From a virus (taxonomy: Duplodnaviria; Heunggongvirae; Uroviricota; Caudoviricetes), in the IMG/VR virus record IMGVR_UViG_2850796239_000009: DNA of 56,870 nucleotides. One strand, given 5' to 3'. Below are positions 1 to 53,564 of this stretch, one piece after another. Position 1 is the first letter of the stretch; each line of letters begins with the position of its first letter. Position numbers and translations under genes: made by a program. Under the pieces are notes generated by a model that worked only from the letters and a program-made list of their open reading frames with translations, searched no databases and was not told the origin of the DNA.

Positions 1-303
1 TTAACGCGTATTTTTCAGCGACTCCTGTGCAAAATACGCTGTTGCTTTTTTTAATATATCTCGCTCAAGGCGAGCTTCATTTAACGCCTTACGCAGTTGC
101 AGAATTTCAGATTCCAGTTCAGCCACCGTGCGGGAACCAGGAGTACAGAGCCCTTTTCTGGCGGCGGTAACCCATTGTCCTAAAGTGCCTTCAGGAAGGG
201 ATAATCGGGAAGCGCCTTCACTGATCGAAAGTTGATTTTCAAGAACCGTTCTGACAGCTTCGGCTTTGAACTCTTTAGAGTAACGTTGGGTTTTTCTGCT
301 CAT
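1..303 (-). CDS. IS3-family transposase OrfA (HTH), IS600-like
   Basis: 100-aa ORF MSRKTQRYSKEFKAEAV...ILKKATAYF, the characteristic IS3 OrfA HTH/leucine-zipper pattern. Confidence 0.75.
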   Translation of the reverse strand: MSRKTQRYSKEFKAEAVRTVLENQLSISEGASRLSLPEGTLGQWVTAARKGLCTPGSRTVAELESEILQLRKALNEARLERDILKKATAYFAQESLKNTR

Positions 304-3149: not shown

Positions 3150-3524
3150 ATGCTCATAGATTTGGTTTTACCTTACCCGCCGACGGTGAACACTTACTGG
3201 CGACGCCGTGGCAGCACATATTTTATCTCGGAGGAGGGAAAGCGTTATCGCCGGGCTGTGGCGCTTATTGTTCGCCAGCAGCGGCTGAAATTAAGCCTGT
3301 CCGGAAGGCTGGCGATAAAGGTGATTGCAGAGCCACCGGATAAGCGTCGTCGCGACCTGGACAATATCCTGAAAGCACCGCTGGATGCGCTGACGCATGC
3401 GGGAGTGTTAATGGACGATGAGCAGTTTGATGAAATCAATATCGTTCGTGGTCAGCCAGTATCTGGTGGACGTATGGGGGTGAAGATTTACCCCATAATG
3501 CATGAAGAGCAGGTCAAAAAATGA
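3150..3524 (+). CDS. rusA: RusA-family Holliday junction resolvase
   Basis: 124-aa ORF with PPTVNTYWRRRG...KRRRDLDNILKAPLDALTHAGVLMDDEQF, the RusA catalytic-region pattern. Confidence 0.75.
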   Translation: MLIDLVLPYPPTVNTYWRRRGSTYFISEEGKRYRRAVALIVRQQRLKLSLSGRLAIKVIAEPPDKRRRDLDNILKAPLDALTHAGVLMDDEQFDEINIVRGQPVSGGRMGVKIYPIMHEEQVKK

Positions 3525-4342
3525 AACTGGAAGATTTACCGAAATACTACTCCCCAAAATCCCCTGGCCTGACCGATGCATCGGCCTCAACGTCAAAAGA
3601 TGCGCTGAGTATCACTGATGTGATGGCCGCGCAGGGCATGACACAGAATCGGGCTGAGATGGGGTTTTCTGCGTTCCTGGGGAAAATGGGCATCAGTATG
3701 AATGACAGGGCGCGGGCAACAGAATTACTGGCAGATTATGCACTCAGTCGGTGCGATCGTGTGGCGGCGTTGAGAAAACTTCCGGCAGAAATAAAACCGG
3801 TAGTGATGCGCATTATGGCTTCGTACGCTTTTGAGGATTATGCCCGCAGCGCAGCGAGTAAAAAGCAGTGCCCTTGTTGCTATGGGGAAAAATTTATTGA
3901 AAGCGTAGTTTTTACAAACAAGGTCCAGTATCCGGATGGTAAGCCGCCGGTATGGGCAAAGTGTACGAAAGGTGTGTATCCGTCTTACTGGGAAGAATGG
4001 AAAAAAGTCAGGGAGGTGGTAAAAGTTGCCTGTCCGGAGTGTGGCGGAAAGGGTGAGGTTTCCACCGCCTGTAAGGATAGCCGTGGGCGTGGTGTCGCCA
4101 TTCACCGTGAAGAGTCGGTAAAACGTGGTATGCCTGTTATCAGAGACTGCCAGCGTTGTGGTGGTCGTGGCTATGAAAGACTACCATCAACGGAGGTATT
4201 TAATGCTATATGCGAGGTGACAAACCAGATAACACGCGCGTCATGGGAAAAAACAGTTAAGAAATTCTATGATGCGCTGGTGACCCGGTTTGATATTGAA
4301 GAAGCATGGGCTGAGCGGCAGTTAAAAAAGGTAACTAGGTAA
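3521..4342 (+). CDS. Late-gene antitermination protein Q (zinc-binding)
   Basis: 273-aa ORF with three CxxC pairs (CPCCYGEK, CPECGGKG, CQRCGGRG); directly upstream of putative pR'/tR' and the lysis cassette. Confidence 0.6.
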   Translation: MKLEDLPKYYSPKSPGLTDASASTSKDALSITDVMAAQGMTQNRAEMGFSAFLGKMGISMNDRARATELLADYALSRCDRVAALRKLPAEIKPVVMRIMASYAFEDYARSAASKKQCPCCYGEKFIESVVFTNKVQYPDGKPPVWAKCTKGVYPSYWEEWKKVREVVKVACPECGGKGEVSTACKDSRGRGVAIHREESVKRGMPVIRDCQRCGGRGYERLPSTEVFNAICEVTNQITRASWEKTVKKFYDALVTRFDIEEAWAERQLKKVTR

Positions 4343-4347
4343 CAAGG

Positions 4348-4375
4348 TTGATTTTTCCGGAATCTGTGGTAAATT
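4348..4375 (+). promoter_or_regulatory. Putative late promoter pR' (-35 TTGATT, 16-bp spacer, -10 TAAATT)
   Basis: Sigma70-like hexamers immediately downstream of Q, the expected position of pR'/qut. Confidence 0.35.
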
Positions 4376-4424
4376 CGTCATAACGATGGGCTTTTTATGC
4401 CTGACGTTAGAAGAGTTTCTACAA

Positions 4425-4447
4425 CCCGCCGCCGAGCGGGTTTTTTA
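4425..4447 (+). terminator. tR'-like rho-independent terminator
   Basis: CCCGC-CGCCGA-GCGGG hairpin followed by TTTTTT. Confidence 0.5.
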
Positions 4448-4485
4448 TTGCGGAATTAATTACGGACCGTTATTATTCTGCTCCC

Positions 4486-4561
4486 GGCCCTTTAGCTCAG
4501 TGGTGAGAGCGAGCGACTCATAATCGCCAGGTCGCTGGTTCAAATCCAGCAAGGGCCACCA
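4486..4561 (+). tRNA. Phage-borne tRNA, anticodon CAU (Ile2/Met type, ileZ-like)
   Basis: 7-bp acceptor stem GGCCCUU/AAGGGCC, anticodon loop CUCAUAA, T-loop GGTTCAAATCC, encoded CCA. Confidence 0.8.
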
Positions 4562-4662
4562 TCACAAACCGGCATTAGCTTATCAGGAAGAGCAGACGAC
4601 ACGATAACAGGGTTGTTGGTGCGGGGGGCGGGTCCCCGATGGCGGTCCATTATCGGTATTCA

Positions 4663-4739
4663 GCGTTGTTAGCTCAGCCGGACAGAGCAATTGCCTTCTA
4701 AGCAATCGGTCACTGGTTCGAATCCAGTACAGCGCGCCA
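4663..4739 (+). tRNA. Phage-borne tRNA-Arg, anticodon UCU
   Basis: Acceptor stem GCGUUGU/ACAGCGC, D-loop AGCTCAGCCGGACAGAGC, anticodon loop CUUCUAA, T-loop GGTTCGAATCC, encoded CCA. Confidence 0.8.
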
Positions 4740-4849
4740 TATTCATTCTTCCAGATTCCTTCCGGCAGAGCCTTATACTGAAATATACCTGGCTCAGGAT
4801 ATTGTTGAAAATATTATATGTTTGTCAAAAATAAAAGTTCTGTTAAGTA

Positions 4850-5203
4850 TTGATTGAGTATTTGTTATACGGTCTAATGGTTTTTTCAGCATTAAATATT
4901 TATCATTCATATGGTGTGGGTAGAGTGAATATTGATGAGGCGTCGGGGTGTTTCATCCTTAGGCAGCGTATTGATATAGTCAATGCAGCACGAGCAAAGG
5001 CCTTCAGCCGTTTGACAGTTTTGTTCTGTACTCCTGATCGTCTTTCGGGAAGAGACGTTATTATTCTGAATAGTGATGCTATACAGAGGGTTTGCGATGA
5101 GTTCATGGTTGCTAATTCAGAATTATTTGCTCTTGTTCAGGAGTACAACAGAATAGCCAGGACCTGTGGTATGGATGAACTTCGGATTACTCATCTGGGG
5201 TAG
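4850..5203 (+). CDS. Hypothetical protein in AT-rich cargo region
   Basis: 117-aa ORF with no recognisable motif, in low-GC DNA just downstream of the tRNAs. Confidence 0.3.
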   Translation: MIEYLLYGLMVFSALNIYHSYGVGRVNIDEASGCFILRQRIDIVNAARAKAFSRLTVLFCTPDRLSGRDVIILNSDAIQRVCDEFMVANSELFALVQEYNRIARTCGMDELRITHLG

Positions 5204-5650
5204 ATACATATCTGGATTATCACCTGTTACGGTAAAAAGTGATTGCTTACTGTTTTTGTGAATGGCATTGCAGCAGCCGGATAATGTCAGTGCTGGCTGA
5301 CGGTGTGCTGGTGGCGGGTGTGGTGGTTGTTGCTTTCCCGTTGCTGAAAAAGAAAACGCCAGACTGTTAGCCGGGTATCAGTTAGCGGGAGAAATTTTTA
5401 AATACTTCACAATTCAGGCGGTTGACTGTTGTCTGGTTTGCGGGGAGTTTGTTAAAAGAAACTGGCATGGTGAATCCCCCTGTGCGGAGGGGCAATCAGC
5501 GAGTAGGTATATGGGATAATCGCGGATTCAGGTGCTGGTACTGAATTCACCGGGAGGCACCCGGCACCATGCAATGGCACATAGCGCCACTCTCCAGCCC
5601 CTCTCCGGAGGGGCTGTTTATATTGATTTTGTCAGATGTGAGTAAACTCC

Positions 5651-5986
5651 TTATGGACTTTGTTGTTTTAGTCCATAAGGACATATTTGCAGAGTGCAAC
5701 GGTTATTAAAGCATTCATTCAATACGTTATCTGTATTTGTAGGGCATTCCTGGCTGTTTTTGATTAAATTCCAGAATGTTTTATTGAATGGTACTACGTT
5801 GTAAATGGTTACAGGTAGCACTTTGTTATTGAGCATGATGCCTGTGTGAGTCAGTGTAAATATACTTTCAGGAGGTAAGAAAGCATCCGATTGATACCAG
5901 ATTATTAATTTTATTTTACTCCATATGACTGAAAAAGATATTCCGCATGATGGCTGGATAACTGTATCAATCACAATCCACTTCAT
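5651..5986 (-). CDS. Hypothetical protein in AT-rich cargo region
   Basis: 111-aa ORF convergent with 4850-5203; low GC. Confidence 0.25.
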
Positions 5987-6245
5987 TTAGTTTCCTTGTT
6001 TATGCCTTGCTGGTGATGTTCTGAAAAGTATAAATGATATTTTTGAATTAAACCATAGAGCAGAATTATTTTTCTGATATTGTTTATTGTTTATTTAAAT
6101 GCAGGGTGGTTTATATCTCGTCTTGTAGTTTATCCATGCATATCTGCTTGATAATCAGGTTTTTATTTAAGGTATGGTTTTGTGTTTTTTCTGTATTACA
6201 TGTCAGGTATTTTAAAGAATTATTTTTCAGATGGTGGAAAGAACC

Positions 6246-6434
6246 ATGGCATTTAAACACTATGATGTTGTCAGGGCGGCGCCGCCGTCAGATCTTGCGG
6301 AAAAGCTGACACATAAACTGAAAGAGGGCTGGCAGCCGTTTGGTAGTCCGGTGGCCATAACCCCTTATACCCTGATGCAGGCGATTGCAGCAGAAGGTGA
6401 TGTGGTGGTCAGTGGTGCAACTGAGCCGGAGTGA
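6246..6434 (+). CDS. Small conserved lambdoid protein (DUF1737-like)
   Basis: MAFKHYDVVRAAPPSDLAEKLTHKLKEGWQPFGSPVAI...; ORF-track frame starts at 6231, likely start is Met-6. Confidence 0.4.
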   Translation: MAFKHYDVVRAAPPSDLAEKLTHKLKEGWQPFGSPVAITPYTLMQAIAAEGDVVVSGATEPE

Positions 6435-6741
6435 TACTACGTCATCGTACTGGCCCGGCATTCCAGGCCATAAAAGACAGTCTGGCAGTGGGACTAAATG
6501 CACTGACGCTGACGGATATTACCAAAAATGCAACGTATGGCGTTGAGATAGAAAGTCTGGTGCTGGAGATAAATGCACCGGCATCATCATAAAAAGTGAG
6601 CCAGTCAAATGGAAGGTATCGTTAAACTCACCGGTAGTGTCAGTGGGTCGTCTGAGACGCTTGCATGAGTTATCAGAGCCATCAGTAGTTAACTGGTGGC
6701 TTTTTTATTGTTGTCAGCTTCCGGATAACGGGAGACGGGGT

Positions 6742-6957
6742 ATGGACCAGATGGAAAAAATCACAACAGGTGTGTCATACACCACGTCAGCGGTGGGAAC
6801 GGGCTACTGGTTCCTGCAGTTGCTGGACAGGGTTTCCCCGTCTCAGTGGGCGGCAATAGGCGTGCTGGGGAGTCGGCTGTTTGGGCTGCTGACATATCTG
6901 ACTAACCTGTATTTCAAAATCAGAGAGGACCGTCGTAAGGCTGCACGGGGAGAGTAA
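6742..6957 (+). CDS. Class II holin (phage 21 S-type pinholin), dual-start motif
   Basis: 71-aa product [15 protein letters not shown]...[22 protein letters not shown] with two TM segments; GGAGA Shine-Dalgarno upstream; ORF-track frame extends upstream to 6637. Confidence 0.8.
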
Positions 6958-6961
6958 TTCA

Positions 6962-7306
6962 ATGACTCAAAACTATGAACTGATTGTGAAAGGGATCCGC
7001 AATTTTGAGAATAAAGTTACGGTAACTTTAGCGTTACGGGACAAAAAACGCTTTGACGGTGAAATTTTTGACCTGGACATCTCGCTGGACCGTGTTGAAG
7101 GTGCCGCGCTGGAGTTTTATGAGGCAGCAGCCAGAATGAGCATCAGACAGGTCTTCCTGGATGTTGCTGCCGGGTTATGTGAAGGGGATGAACAGTCGCC
7201 GGAAAAGCGCCCCATAATTTTAGAGGCGCAGAATGTGTGGATAACCTACAAAGGAAAGCTACCAGGAAGAATTACTGATTCTCTGAAGACTCCACCGAAA
7301 TGGTAA
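6962..7306 (+). CDS. YdfR-like protein (DUF1327-like)
   Basis: 114-aa ORF between holin and lysozyme, where Qin-type prophages carry ydfR. Confidence 0.45.
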   Translation: MTQNYELIVKGIRNFENKVTVTLALRDKKRFDGEIFDLDISLDRVEGAALEFYEAAARMSIRQVFLDVAAGLCEGDEQSPEKRPIILEAQNVWITYKGKLPGRITDSLKTPPKW

Positions 7307-7544
7307 TTTTACCAGCATATTTTTCTTCCAGTAATGCCGCCAGCCACTTGAAAGAATTTTGTTGTTCCTGGGACCATTTGGGGTTGCGTGATTCAAGCAG
7401 GAGCGATGCCAGTGTTGGTTGCATTTGTTCTCTGGGAATTGATAAGGCCAGAGATGAAAATGCAACAGTGAGGGCATTTACATCATCCCGAAGCCTGGAA
7501 ATGCAGTCGAGCAACTCCTGTAGAGAAATGGTGTTATTGTCCAT
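7272..7544 (-). CDS. Hypothetical protein, convergent with ydfR-like gene
   Basis: 90-aa ORF with AGAGGA Shine-Dalgarno 7 nt upstream of its ATG; no recognisable motif. Confidence 0.3.
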   Translation of the reverse strand: MDNNTISLQELLDCISRLRDDVNALTVAFSSLALSIPREQMQPTLASLLLESRNPKWSQEQQNSFKWLAALLEEKYAGKITISVESSENQ

Positions 7545-8677: not shown

Positions 8678-9039
8678 ATTAATATTAAATCGGATTATTT
8701 TTAGCGCTGAATGTGAAATTTAAATAAAAAGGACTCTTCCATGAGTCAAAATCCTTGAAATCTTAAGGGTAAGATAAAAGGTCATTAGACAGAATGACAC
8801 GTTTTATTAATAAATAAAGCTATTGTTTCATTCGTGTGTTTTTCTTTACAAAAGTAATCCTTGCTATGGTTGGTTAATCATGCGTTAATGGTGTTCTGGT
8901 TTGTTACAAAATTATCTGAAGCAGTCATTGTTATAATTTTATTATTTGTACCTCTTGAGATTTCCTTGTTGGTTTTTCTCTCTGATATTTTTTTCGGACC
9001 ATTCTGCCCAAGGGCTAACTTCTTCAAAAGGTAATAATA

Positions 9040-9252
9040 ATGTCTAACAAAATGACTGGTTTAGTGAAATGGTTTAACCCTGAAAAAGGTTTTGGTTTCA
9101 TCACGCCGAAAGATGGTAGCAAAGATGTGTTTGTGCATTTCTCAGCTATTCAGAGCAACGATTTCAAAACGTTAACTGAGAATCAGGAAGTCGAATTTGG
9201 TATTGAGAACGGACCTAAAGGCCCTGCAGCTGTTCATGTAGTGGCACTTTGA
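9040..9252 (+). CDS. cspI: Cold-shock protein (CspA family, CspI-like)
   Basis: 70-aa [41 protein letters not shown]... with RNP1/RNP2 motifs. Confidence 0.85.
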
Positions 9253-9459
9253 GGTAGAAAATATTACAAACCATATTCACTTTAGATGCCCGTGTTGCCA
9301 TGGTTCTCAGTATAGAACATCATCTTTTGATGTTTCTGACAGAAATCCTTTCGGGGCAAAATGTATCTTTTGTAAATCAATGATGATTACATTTGATAAT
9401 ATTTCACAATACTTAAATGTTAGCCATCTGTCGCTAGATTTAAGAAAGTGAAAATGAAG

Positions 9460-52989: not shown

Positions 52990-53564
52990 TGGCATTCAGA
53001 ATGAGTGAACAACCACGGACCATAAAAATTTATAATCTGCTGGCCGGAACTAATGAATTTATTGGTGAAGGTGATGCATATATTCCGCCTCATACAGGTC
53101 TGCCAGCAAACAGTACCGATATTGCACCGCCAGATATTCCGGCTGGCTTCGTGGCTGTTTTCAACAGTGATGAGTCATCGTGGCATCTCGTTGAAGATCA
53201 TCGGGGTAAAACAGTTTATGACGTGGCGTCAGGGGACGCGTTATTTATTTCTGAACTCGGTCCGTTACCGGAAAATGTTACCTGGTTATCGCCGGAAGGG
53301 GAGTTTCAGAAGTGGAACGGCACAGCCTGGGTGAAGGATACGGAAGCAGAAAAACTGTTCCGGATCCGGGAGGCGGAAGAAACAAAAAACAACCTGATGC
53401 AGGTAGCCAGTGAGCATATTGCGCCGCTTCAGGATGCTGCAGATCTGGAAATTGCAACGGAGGAAGAAATCTCGTTGCTGGAAGCATGGAAAAAGTATCG
53501 GGTATTGCTGAACCGTGTTGATACGTCAACTGCACAGGATATTGAATGGCCAGCACTGCCGTAG
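52989..53564 (+). CDS. tfa: Tail fibre assembly protein Tfa
   Basis: 191-aa [61 protein letters not shown]..., directly after stf. Confidence 0.85.

Follow-up and report, generated by a model that had tools for sequence, protein, structure and literature searches.

IraL of the uropathogenic E. coli strain CFT073 (c1429; Hryckowian et al. [quoted passage not shown] In CFT073, iraL responds when Fur is lost and when the temperature is shifted to 37 C (PMC7157518, PMC12890032). Small RNAs of the STnc100 family have been described from many lambdoid prophages, and the EDL933 copies have been detected by RNA-seq, one of them being confirmed by Northern blot (PMC5331693).

Here we describe a block at positions 4760-6230 of a 56,870-nucleotide stretch of Caudoviricetes DNA, the whole of which is called the window below. 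The sequence-only reading had taken this block for cargo in the toxin-equivalent position, with two convergent open reading frames (ORFs) of no recognisable family, expressed from the late promoter and candidates for an uncharacterised fitness, virulence or defence factor. We find that the block is already known and ordinary, and that one gene in it, designated orf92, is a small residual lead. With high confidence, we identify the block as the "moron" (accessory region) in a lambdoid prophage of the CFT073-potB type, a four-part and partly decayed mosaic of iraL, STnc100, a truncated gene designated tciB', and orf92. The features of the region are as follows.

3521..4342, plus strand: late-gene antiterminator Q, the upstream boundary (Pfam PF03589 Antiterm, 1.8e-53)
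4348..4449, plus strand: putative pR' and tR'-like intrinsic terminator (terminator hairpin 4423-4442 plus T-run)
4486..4561, plus strand: tRNA with anticodon CAT, ileZ-like (ARAGORN; Rfam tRNA 72.5 bits; homologous to the 933W ileZ block)
4562..4662, plus strand: degenerate argN-like pseudo-tRNA (homologous at its ends to the middle tRNA-Arg of CFT073, centre replaced)
4663..4739, plus strand: tRNA-Arg (TCT), argO-like (ARAGORN; Rfam 68 bits)
4925..5203, plus strand: orf92, probable GTG start, 92 aa, PHROG 2873 (frame open upstream to TTG 4850, 117 aa)
5211..5238, plus strand: remnant of the 3' end of tciA, a TerB-domain gene (28-nt match, 85.7%, E 4e-4)
5239..5370, plus strand: tciB', a DUF3927/TciB-like small membrane-protein gene with its N-terminal part lost (Pfam DUF3927, 1.7e-27)
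5436..5625, plus strand: sRNA gene STnc100 (RF02076; Rfam 132.4 bits against a gathering score of 47, E 1.3e-29)
5651..5986, minus strand: iraL, RssB anti-adaptor of the IraM family (111/111 residues identical to CFT073 IraL WP_000871291.1)
5987..6032, minus strand: iraL 5'UTR (33 nt), transcription start 6019 and -10 element TATACT (6027-6032), by match to published 5'-RACE
6231..6592, plus strand: remnants of a NanS-p-type esterase gene, the downstream boundary (N-terminal 6231-6434, C-terminal 6431-6592)

The Toxin Slot and Its Boundaries

The block is indeed AT-rich, with a GC content of 39.2% as against 50.5% in the whole window (4.5th percentile among equal-sized windows), and the two convergent ORFs lie where they had been placed, at 4850-5203 (plus strand, TTG start, 117 aa) and 5651-5986 (minus strand, ATG start, 111 aa). 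The GC content is uneven inside the block, being 0.387 at 4760-5235, 0.506 at 5236-5640 and 0.319 at 5641-6230.

Upstream of the block, Q, a tR'-like terminator and ileZ/argO-type tRNAs follow one another. The homologue of Q is annotated as "antitermination protein" in the prophages of strains 042, MS6198 and CFT073, and in the same homologous prophages the CAT tRNA bears the PGAP label tRNA-Ile. The putative pR' (TTGATT-16-TGgTAAATT) was read by eye and scores under the threshold of the promoter scan, and the tR'-like hairpin at 4423-4442 folds with a z-score of only -1.8. The pseudo-tRNA received no call from either ARAGORN or Rfam. At the other boundary, the NanS-p remnants match Pfam DUF1737 (4.2e-17) and cover positions 1-58 and 582-632 of the 634 in the phrog_143 profile; their homologue is a pseudogene in the PGAP annotation of the three prophages.

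An alignment with Stx phage 933W fixes the position of the block. Window 4446-4747 corresponds to the pT/ileZ-argN-argO block (86.6%), 5407-5573 to the STnc100 copy directly after stx2B (71%), 6245-6353 to the 5' end of nanS-p (84% identical), and 6673-6957 to the holin. Because these flanking segments align, window 4748-5406 is the place of stx2AB and 5574-6244 the place of AsxR. The block is thus bounded by the tRNAs on one side and by the lysis genes on the other, and its flanks are homologous to those of 933W, as in a late-region moron; the toxin-equivalent slot proposed after Q, tR' and the tRNAs is confirmed.

IraL on the Strand Opposite to the Late Operon

Pfam gave nothing for either ORF, and both were identified only through NCBIfam and PHROGs. 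The 111-aa ORF matches NCBIfam NF007393/PRK09919 over residues 1-110 with 162 bits (cutoff 121, E 4.7e-48), and together with the complete identity to CFT073 IraL this places it in a well-known family, contrary to the sequence-only reading; for the other ORF that reading was right in part, as it is a real uncharacterised gene, but one already included in PHROG 2873. Residues 1-78 of IraL align gap-free to chain A of the IraM structure PDB 8TWD (E 9.1e-32). A PmrD-like beta-barrel core, as in residues 1-78 of IraM, is suggested for IraL from the sequence. Over the whole protein, IraL is 59.5% identical to K-12 IraM, with a dN/dS of 0.15. From the identity with the CFT073 protein, we infer that IraL acts on RssB and sigma-S in this strain as well.

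The published 5'-RACE sequence of iraL, ACATCACCAGCAAGGCATAAACAAGGAAACCA (PMC4045071), agrees with the minus-strand sequence of 5988-6019 in 31 of its 32 nucleotides, and TATACT is found 7 nt upstream of the start site; the -35 element, judged by eye, is poor. The late operon is read from the other strand, and iraL starts at a mapped sigma-70-type site of its own, so that it does not count as a gene of the late promoter. Expression from the late promoter, as previously proposed for both ORFs, therefore fails for iraL, and by orientation it fits orf92, tciB' and STnc100.

No canonical intrinsic terminator was found for iraL on its own strand, and the hairpin of STnc100 was considered as a bidirectional terminator and rejected, as it has no U-tract on the minus strand. 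In the region upstream of iraL, the best Fur-box candidate does no better than chance (287 of 500 shuffles were as good), and a PhoP-box-like sequence at 6081-6097, TGTTTA-N5-TATTTA, stands out only marginally (27 of 500).

It might be thought that both ORFs are uncharacterised, belong to no known family and are read from the late promoter upon induction, and that they encode a new factor for virulence, fitness or defence at the toxin site. The slot is truly stx-equivalent by the 933W alignment, and orf92 is a real gene on the late-operon strand. On the contrary, the 111-aa ORF is a characterised anti-adaptor (PMC4045071), by which the proposal is already refuted for that ORF; its gene has a promoter of its own and runs in the opposite direction to the late operon, orf92 had been grouped in a PHROG, and neither ORF matches a PADLOC model. 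A search of PADLOC-DB v2 at E <= 0.01 returned nothing for orf92, tciB', IraL or the DUF1737 remnant, nor for TciA and the AraC-like protein of a related locus (L010, see below). We regard such a new factor as improbable.

STnc100 and the Mosaic Structure of the Block

Two features between the ORFs were absent from the sequence-only reading, namely STnc100 (5436-5625) and the damaged DUF3927/TciB gene (5239-5370). The match of STnc100 to its covariance model is full-length (positions 1-206 of 206), and the gene ends in an intrinsic terminator, in which a GC-rich stem of 9 bp at 5595-5616 precedes TTTATATTGATTTT. It is homologous to the copy located directly after stx2B in 933W. It should be mentioned that the records examined show a pseudo "hypothetical protein" at this gene.

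Among 5426 complete E. coli genomes, 863 contain the whole block at 98-99.6% identity. Its parts are more widespread in the same set: orf92 is in 1186 genomes (~22%), iraL in 1446 and STnc100 in 2860. Phage mEp460_ev081 matches 4760-5573 at 99.3%, and phage vB_EcoS-640R1 matches 5271-6230 at 91%. A mosaic breakpoint is located inside the 3' part of STnc100.

Remnants of tciA and tciB

The 28-nt trace of tciA aligns to the overlap between the end of tciA and the start of tciB in phage JLK-2012, and the rest of tciA is deleted. The following gene, tciB', scores 95.6 bits against DUF3927 (PF13064; gathering score 25) over profile positions 7-53 only, and it covers only positions 23-51 of 54 in phrog_1470 ("TciB-like"). 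Its homology to intact TciB begins at SSRIM (window 5271); the first hydrophobic segment has been replaced, so that the N-terminus reads VIAYCFCEWHC where TciB of JLK-2012 has VTVKMRLAVVALLLFLVVMVDF. A full-length TciB with its N-terminal hydrophobic segment, paired with TciA, is not present in the window.

In fuller relatives, orf92 is the first gene of a conserved cassette, orf92-TciA(TerB)-TciB, which lies just before the holin and often follows an AraC-like regulator, and the arrangement is intact in the related loci L010/L011 and L020-L022. The cassette is largely deleted in the window. A literature search on tciA/tciB returned only unrelated papers on Trypanosoma.

A Small Conserved Gene in the Place of stx2AB

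The match of orf92 to phrog_2873 (5.6e-58) extends over residues 1-92 and profile positions 17-108 of 108, and the same PHROG was matched by all nine members of the orf92 alignment (A4). The gene has a dN/dS of 0.22 against its relative in L010 and 0.27 against that in locus L006, and its third-position identity is 0.53-0.54 as compared with 0.74-0.79 at codon positions 1 and 2. The frame is intact in all four homologous loci checked (042, MS6198, mEp460 and CFT073), and the other five frames of the segment are rich in stop codons. By these measures of its sequence, orf92 is a real protein-coding gene.

That the block is a non-coding AT-rich spacer whose ORFs are open by chance would agree with the low GC content, with the TTG start of the 117-aa ORF and with the absence of both ORFs from Pfam. 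However, the dN/dS values of orf92 (0.22-0.27) and of iraL, the divergence at third positions, the stops in the other frames, and the strong NCBIfam and PHROG matches all speak against it, and a protein identical to IraL has been characterised experimentally (PMC4045071). This explanation is already refuted, and we consider it extremely improbable.

The length of 117 aa first given to this ORF is probably wrong, and translation probably starts at GTG 4925 (92 aa) rather than at TTG 4850. The 24 codons 5' of GTG 4925 have a dN/dS of 0.86, family members of 91-95 aa have their starts at, or at most three residues from, this GTG, and the homologue in L010 has AGGAG 4 nt before its GTG, where the window copy has only GTGGGT. 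An AF2 model of the 92-aa form (pLDDT 88) predicts a helical hairpin, and in the model of the 117-aa form residues 1-23 fall below a pLDDT of 50 as a disordered N-terminus. Foldseek searches of PDB and BFVD with the model gave no match at E <= 1e-3, and what they returned were generic helical hairpins (prefoldin, efflux adaptors, BAR domains).

Nothing was found for orf92 in Pfam, NCBIfam or PADLOC, and tblastn against 50,697 phage records gave a single match, mEp460_ev081. A locus search from a further alignment (A5) among species-representative genomes gave two loci only. The remotest "relative", P0030, which is 21% identical and lies within a Mu-like tail region, showed no coherent context, and neither did P0025/P0027, close to fimbrial and GerE-type regulator genes. 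The promoter scan gave six sites as against 6.2 in shuffled sequence, and a candidate orf92 promoter at 4805-4832 is not evidence because the scan is no richer than shuffled sequence.

Two views of the gene may be compared. Since the window lacks tciA and its tciB has lost the N-terminal segment, orf92 may be no more than a decaying leftover of the orf92-tciA-tciB cassette, functionless here, so that iraL and STnc100 would be the sole working cargo. The Shine-Dalgarno sequence, AGGAG in L010 and only GTGGGT here, points the same way; the segment has no CDS in the annotated CFT073, 042 and MS6198 records, nor in 11 of 12 sampled genomes, and the E. coli copies of orf92 are 95-99.7% similar, too close to reveal selection. 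Against this view, the frame is unbroken in every homologous locus checked, 1186 genomes carry the gene, a metagenome collection contains hundreds of predicted proteins that are identical or nearly so, and relatives in L006/L007 (55-60% identical), which have no recognisable tciAB, keep the frame at a dN/dS of 0.27. We hold a relic to be a realistic possibility, though with somewhat less than an even chance. Alternatively, orf92 may encode a functional small helical protein in the exact stx slot. It might act as a regulator or as a partner within a lysogenic-conversion module of the prophage connected with the membrane or with stress, and orf92 would then have been kept here as an orphan that has its own role; this we propose tentatively and think rather unlikely.

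A Model of the Region

Returning to the region as a whole, which we take to be a moron mosaic of the CFT073-potB type, we suggest that two cargo slots are filled: the argO-STnc100 interval, which holds stx2AB in Stx2 phages, and the STnc100-nanS-p interval, which holds AsxR in Stx2 phages. In the lysogen, iraL would be transcribed from its own sigma-70-type promoter, against the late operon. IraL would bind the N-terminal receiver domain of RssB, so that RssB could not hand sigma-S to ClpXP, and RpoS would therefore be stabilised in exponential growth. STnc100 is a structured, terminator-ended sRNA common to many lambdoid prophages, tciB' represents a truncated DUF3927 gene remaining after the deletion of tciA, and orf92 encodes a conserved protein, probably of 92 aa and predicted to be a helical hairpin, and is the first gene of the cassette in fuller relatives. 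From their orientation, orf92, tciB' and STnc100 might also be read by Q-modified late transcription, and late read-through would run antisense through iraL.

The value of the region as a discovery is small: iraL was characterised in 2014 in a 98%-identical prophage, STnc100 is an Rfam family, and the block is present in hundreds of sequenced E. coli. What is gained is mainly a correction, in that what looks like "hypothetical cargo" at the toxin site is in fact a known modulator of the host stress response, transcribed against the late operon. The slot also has annotation gaps in the records examined, at both orf92 and STnc100. The recurring orf92-TciA-TciB cassette beside the holin is a small, testable lead on non-toxin lambdoid cargo at the Stx toxin site.

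Comparison with Known Systems

The CFT073 iraL locus shares with the window Q, the tRNAs, DUF3927, STnc100, iraL on the minus strand, the DUF1737 remnant and the holin, and window 4444-6700 is 98.3% identical to it in DNA. The two differ in that CFT073 has IS200C between Q and the tRNAs, three intact tRNAs where the window has two and a degenerate middle one, and a different nucleotide at one position in the iraL 5'UTR.

K-12 IraM (b1160; PDB 8TWD, PMC10844676) is, like IraL, an RssB anti-adaptor of the PRK09919 family, with 51 of 78 residues identical in the crystallised core. At the DNA level only the coding regions are homologous, and a shared genomic context of iraM and iraL was rejected because their flanks are unrelated. 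IraM is described as induced by Mg2+ starvation and contacts both RssB domains (PMC10844676), whereas IraL acts in log phase through the N-terminal domain only (PMC4045071), and the interface cluster III of IraM, I61-Y62-H63-I64, is I-Y-N-V in IraL.

STnc100 (RF02076) and the related PasD sRNAs (Zhu, Shabalina and Storz 2026, bioRxiv 10.64898/2026.05.13.724894) have in common with the present copy a full-length covariance match, a place in the prophage late region and a terminal intrinsic terminator. They differ in the 3' third, which varies among copies; the recombination breakpoint here is at ~5573.

With the TciA (phrog_632)/TciB (phrog_1470) moron pair of JLK-2012, the window shares the part of tciB' from SSRIM to the C-terminus and the trace of the end of tciA; unlike JLK-2012, it has no tciA, and its tciB lacks the first hydrophobic segment. 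Relatives of orf92 sit immediately upstream of TciA-TciB, and JLK-2012 itself has no orf92.

Finally, the Stx2 phage 933W shares the backbone and insertion points, that is, the tRNA block, cargo, STnc100, a convergent minus-strand element, the nanS-p 5' end and the holin. Its Q is of another family (157 aa, as against the 273-aa PF03589 type in the window), and nanS-p is internally deleted in the window. Where 933W carries stx2AB the window has orf92 and tciB', and where 933W carries AsxR the window has iraL.

Layout of the block between the tRNAs and the holin

The AT-rich block at 4760-6230 contains two convergent ORFs, at the coordinates given in the sequence-only reading; Q, a terminator-like hairpin, and two tRNAs are found upstream.

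3521-4342, Q antiterminator, upstream of both ORFs (Pfam Antiterm, 1.8e-53)
4423-4442, terminator-like hairpin and T-run, upstream of both ORFs
4486-4561, tRNA with anticodon CAT, tRNA-Ile by annotation in homologous prophages
4663-4739, tRNA-Arg (TCT)
4850-5203, plus strand, 117-aa ORF with a TTG start
5651-5986, minus strand, 111-aa ORF with an ATG start

Each end of the segment between the two tRNAs (4562-4662) can be aligned with the middle, argN-like tRNA-Arg of uropathogenic Escherichia coli CFT073 and of the Stx2 phage 933W; its central part is replaced and neither ARAGORN nor Rfam calls it, so it is a pseudo-tRNA. The block is indeed AT-rich, with a GC content of 0.392 versus 0.505 window-wide (4.5th percentile among equal-sized windows), and this composition is uneven: two AT-rich arms, 4760-5235 (0.387) and 5641-6230 (0.319), surround a central segment of normal composition, 5236-5640 (0.506).

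The 111-aa ORF is iraL

Both ORFs had been described as uncharacterised and of no recognisable family. Database searches show that this does not apply to the 111-aa ORF, which is iraL. No Pfam model matches it; its product matches NCBIfam PRK09919, “anti-adapter protein IraM” (162 bits, cutoff 121), and the crystallised IraM core (PDB 8TWD, 9.1e-32), and is identical at 111/111 residues to WP_000871291.1 of CFT073. The CFT073 prophage at potB is homologous, has the same architecture, and is 98.3% identical to window 4444-6700.

[quoted passage not shown] 2014, PMC4045071). Later studies report that iraL is expressed more strongly when CFT073 carries a fur mutation and when it is shifted to 37 C (PMC7157518, PMC12890032). 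The published 5'-RACE start sequence (PMC4045071) is present on the minus strand at 5988-6019 (31/32 positions), with TATACT 7 nt upstream of the start site and a 5'UTR of 33 nt. Expression from the late promoter, as had been proposed for both ORFs, therefore does not hold for iraL: since it opposes the late operon, it would be expressed in the lysogen from its own promoter rather than from pR'. A PhoP-box-like direct repeat, TGTTTA-N5-TATTTA, lies at 6081-6097, 62-78 nt upstream of the start site; it is marginal, being equalled by 27/500 shuffles, and is mentioned because iraM has been described as Mg2+-starvation-induced.

The 117-aa ORF contains a shorter gene, orf92

The 117-aa frame does hold a gene, though a shorter one than first delimited. 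Its segment has no annotated CDS in strains 042, MS6198, and CFT073 or in phage mEp460_ev081, and no annotated feature in 11 of 12 matching RefSeq genomes (a spread sample). That it might be non-coding spacer is contradicted by its relatives, in which the frame is kept at 55-63% amino-acid identity with a dN/dS of 0.22-0.27, and in which third codon positions are the less conserved (nucleotide identity 0.53-0.54, versus 0.74-0.79 at positions 1 and 2). The remaining five frames contain stop codons throughout. In a relative at 42% identity, synonymous sites are saturated. The gene is intact in 4/4 homologous loci checked, copies too alike to reveal selection.

The gene is likely to be 4925-5203, with a GTG start at 4925 and 92 aa, because (i) the 24 codons upstream of this GTG lack the coding signature (dN/dS 0.86); (ii) among the 21 family members found in an exhaustive profile search, the complete ones are 91-95 aa long and start at the equivalent of this GTG or within 3 residues of it; (iii) the homologue in comparison locus L010 has AGGAG 4 nt ahead of its GTG; and (iv) residues 1-23 of the 117-aa form have pLDDT <50 in AlphaFold.

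The orf92 product belongs to PHROG 2873 (5.6e-58), related to PHROG 4827, neither family having an assigned function, and it has no match in Pfam, NCBIfam, or PADLOC. AlphaFold models the 92-aa form confidently (pLDDT 88) as a hairpin of two helices, 3-33 and 50-81, whose loop carries a conserved TPDR; fold searches with this model returned only generic hairpins.

In comparison loci L010/L011 (63% identity) and L020-L022 (38%), the orf92 relative lies directly upstream of TciA (TerB) and TciB (DUF3927), followed by the holin. An AraC-like regulator precedes it in L006/L007/L010/L011, and in L009 it comes after Q and a tRNA. These contexts make orf92 the opening gene of a late-region cassette that recurs among relatives; all that the window keeps of it is orf92 and a damaged tciB. 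The orf92-TciA-TciB triad is preserved down to 38% identity. A fuller cargo is seen at L010 3006-6038 and L020 5001-6063, where the order is DNA methyltransferase, AraC-like regulator (phrog_1450), orf92, TciA, TciB, and holin.

STnc100 and gene remnants

Between the two ORFs lies a full-length sRNA gene, STnc100 (5436-5625, plus strand; Rfam 132.4 bits, gathering score 47), whose 3' end is an intrinsic terminator (5595-5616). EDL933 has 11 transcribed copies, one confirmed by Northern blot (PMC5331693), and a common ancestry of STnc100 and PasD sRNAs has been proposed (bioRxiv 10.64898/2026.05.13.724894). In homologous genomes, PGAP annotates an incomplete pseudo “hypothetical protein” antisense to it, a 42-aa ORF (5452-5580, minus strand) that is most likely an artefact of annotation across the STnc100 gene.

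Upstream, 5239-5370 encodes a 43-aa DUF3927/TciB-like peptide, tciB' (Pfam 1.7e-27), whose profile matches are partial (Pfam, positions 7-53; PHROG, 23-51 of 54). It is homologous to intact TciB from SSRIM (window 5271) onwards, which means that it has lost the first hydrophobic segment; of the preceding tciA, just 28 nt are left (5211-5238). Downstream of the block, a NanS-p-type esterase of ~634 aa survives as two stumps, N-terminal at 6231-6434 (DUF1737) and C-terminal at 6431-6592 (phrog_143 positions 1-58 and 582-632), ~520 codons having been deleted internally. From the tRNAs to the holin, the whole stretch is thus accessory DNA in decay, with iraL, STnc100, and orf92 still intact.

Mosaicism and distribution

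Phage mEp460_ev081 matches window 4760-5573 at 99.3% and phage vB_EcoS-640R1 matches 5271-6230 at 91%, the mosaic joint being located within the 3' part of STnc100. The latter phage carries a tandem STnc100 pair ahead of iraL (L004 3665-3858 and 4134-4322), and its second copy is near-identical to that of the window through the terminator.

Occurrence in 5426 complete E. coli genomes
Whole block (at least 80% of query covered): 863
orf92: 1186
iraL: 1446
STnc100 (up to 12 copies per genome): 2860

The original observation was correct and its positional insight good; the block itself is common and already described, and the residual lead is orf92 with its TciA/TciB cassette.

Other features in the window

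Upstream of the DUF968-RusA-Q genes are relB (519-758), relE (758-1045), and hokD (1117-1272), and an IS3-family orfA fragment (1-303, minus strand) runs off the window start. A 90-aa ORF (7272-7544, minus strand), opposite to the lysis genes, overlaps the end of a YdfR-family gene; in CFT073 its counterpart carries a hypothetical-protein annotation. The Rz gene is followed immediately by a cspA-type thermoregulator 5'UTR (Rfam 111.6 bits, within 8883-9298) and, behind it, a cold-shock protein gene (9040-9252), another AT-rich accessory gene. Near the far end, Rfam IS009 is matched over its full length at 53332-53530 (220.9 bits, gathering score 117).

Proposed working

As shown for an identical gene elsewhere, iraL in the lysogen would be transcribed leftward from its own promoter, and IraL would sequester RssB, raising sigma-S during growth. 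STnc100, judging from its family membership and structure, may be produced as a terminator-ended sRNA. Upon induction, Q-modified polymerase from pR' could, given the gene orientations, read through tR', the tRNAs, orf92, tciB', and STnc100, and then cross iraL antisense towards the lysis genes.

Comparison with IraM and with phage 933W

IraL of the window and K-12 IraM share 59.5% identity (dN/dS 0.15), and DNA homology between their genes ends at the CDS boundaries. In IraM, interface cluster III (I61 Y62 H63 I64) contacts the linker and C-terminal domain of RssB (PMC10844676); the corresponding residues of IraL are I-Y-N-V, which, in our reading of the alignment, is consistent with its reported binding to the N-terminal domain only.

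Direct alignment with 933W confirms the toxin-slot position that had been suggested for the block, the flanks and STnc100 being matched.

4446-4747, 933W pT / ileZ-argN-argO block, 86.6% identity
5407-5573, 933W STnc100, immediately past stx2B, 71% identity
6245-6353, 933W nanS-p esterase gene, 5' end, 84% identity
6673-6957, 933W holin, 93% identity

In Stx2 phages, STnc100 is reported 75 nt downstream of stx2 (PMC12370729), and its location downstream of stx2 in 933W was confirmed here. The alignment blocks therefore define two cargo slots: window 4748-5406 occupies the place of stx2AB, and 5574-6244 that of the minus-strand sRNA AsxR. AsxR (L012 3485-3537, minus strand, in 933W) converges on STnc100 as iraL (5651-5986) does in the window; therefore, one junction takes different leftward-transcribed cargo.
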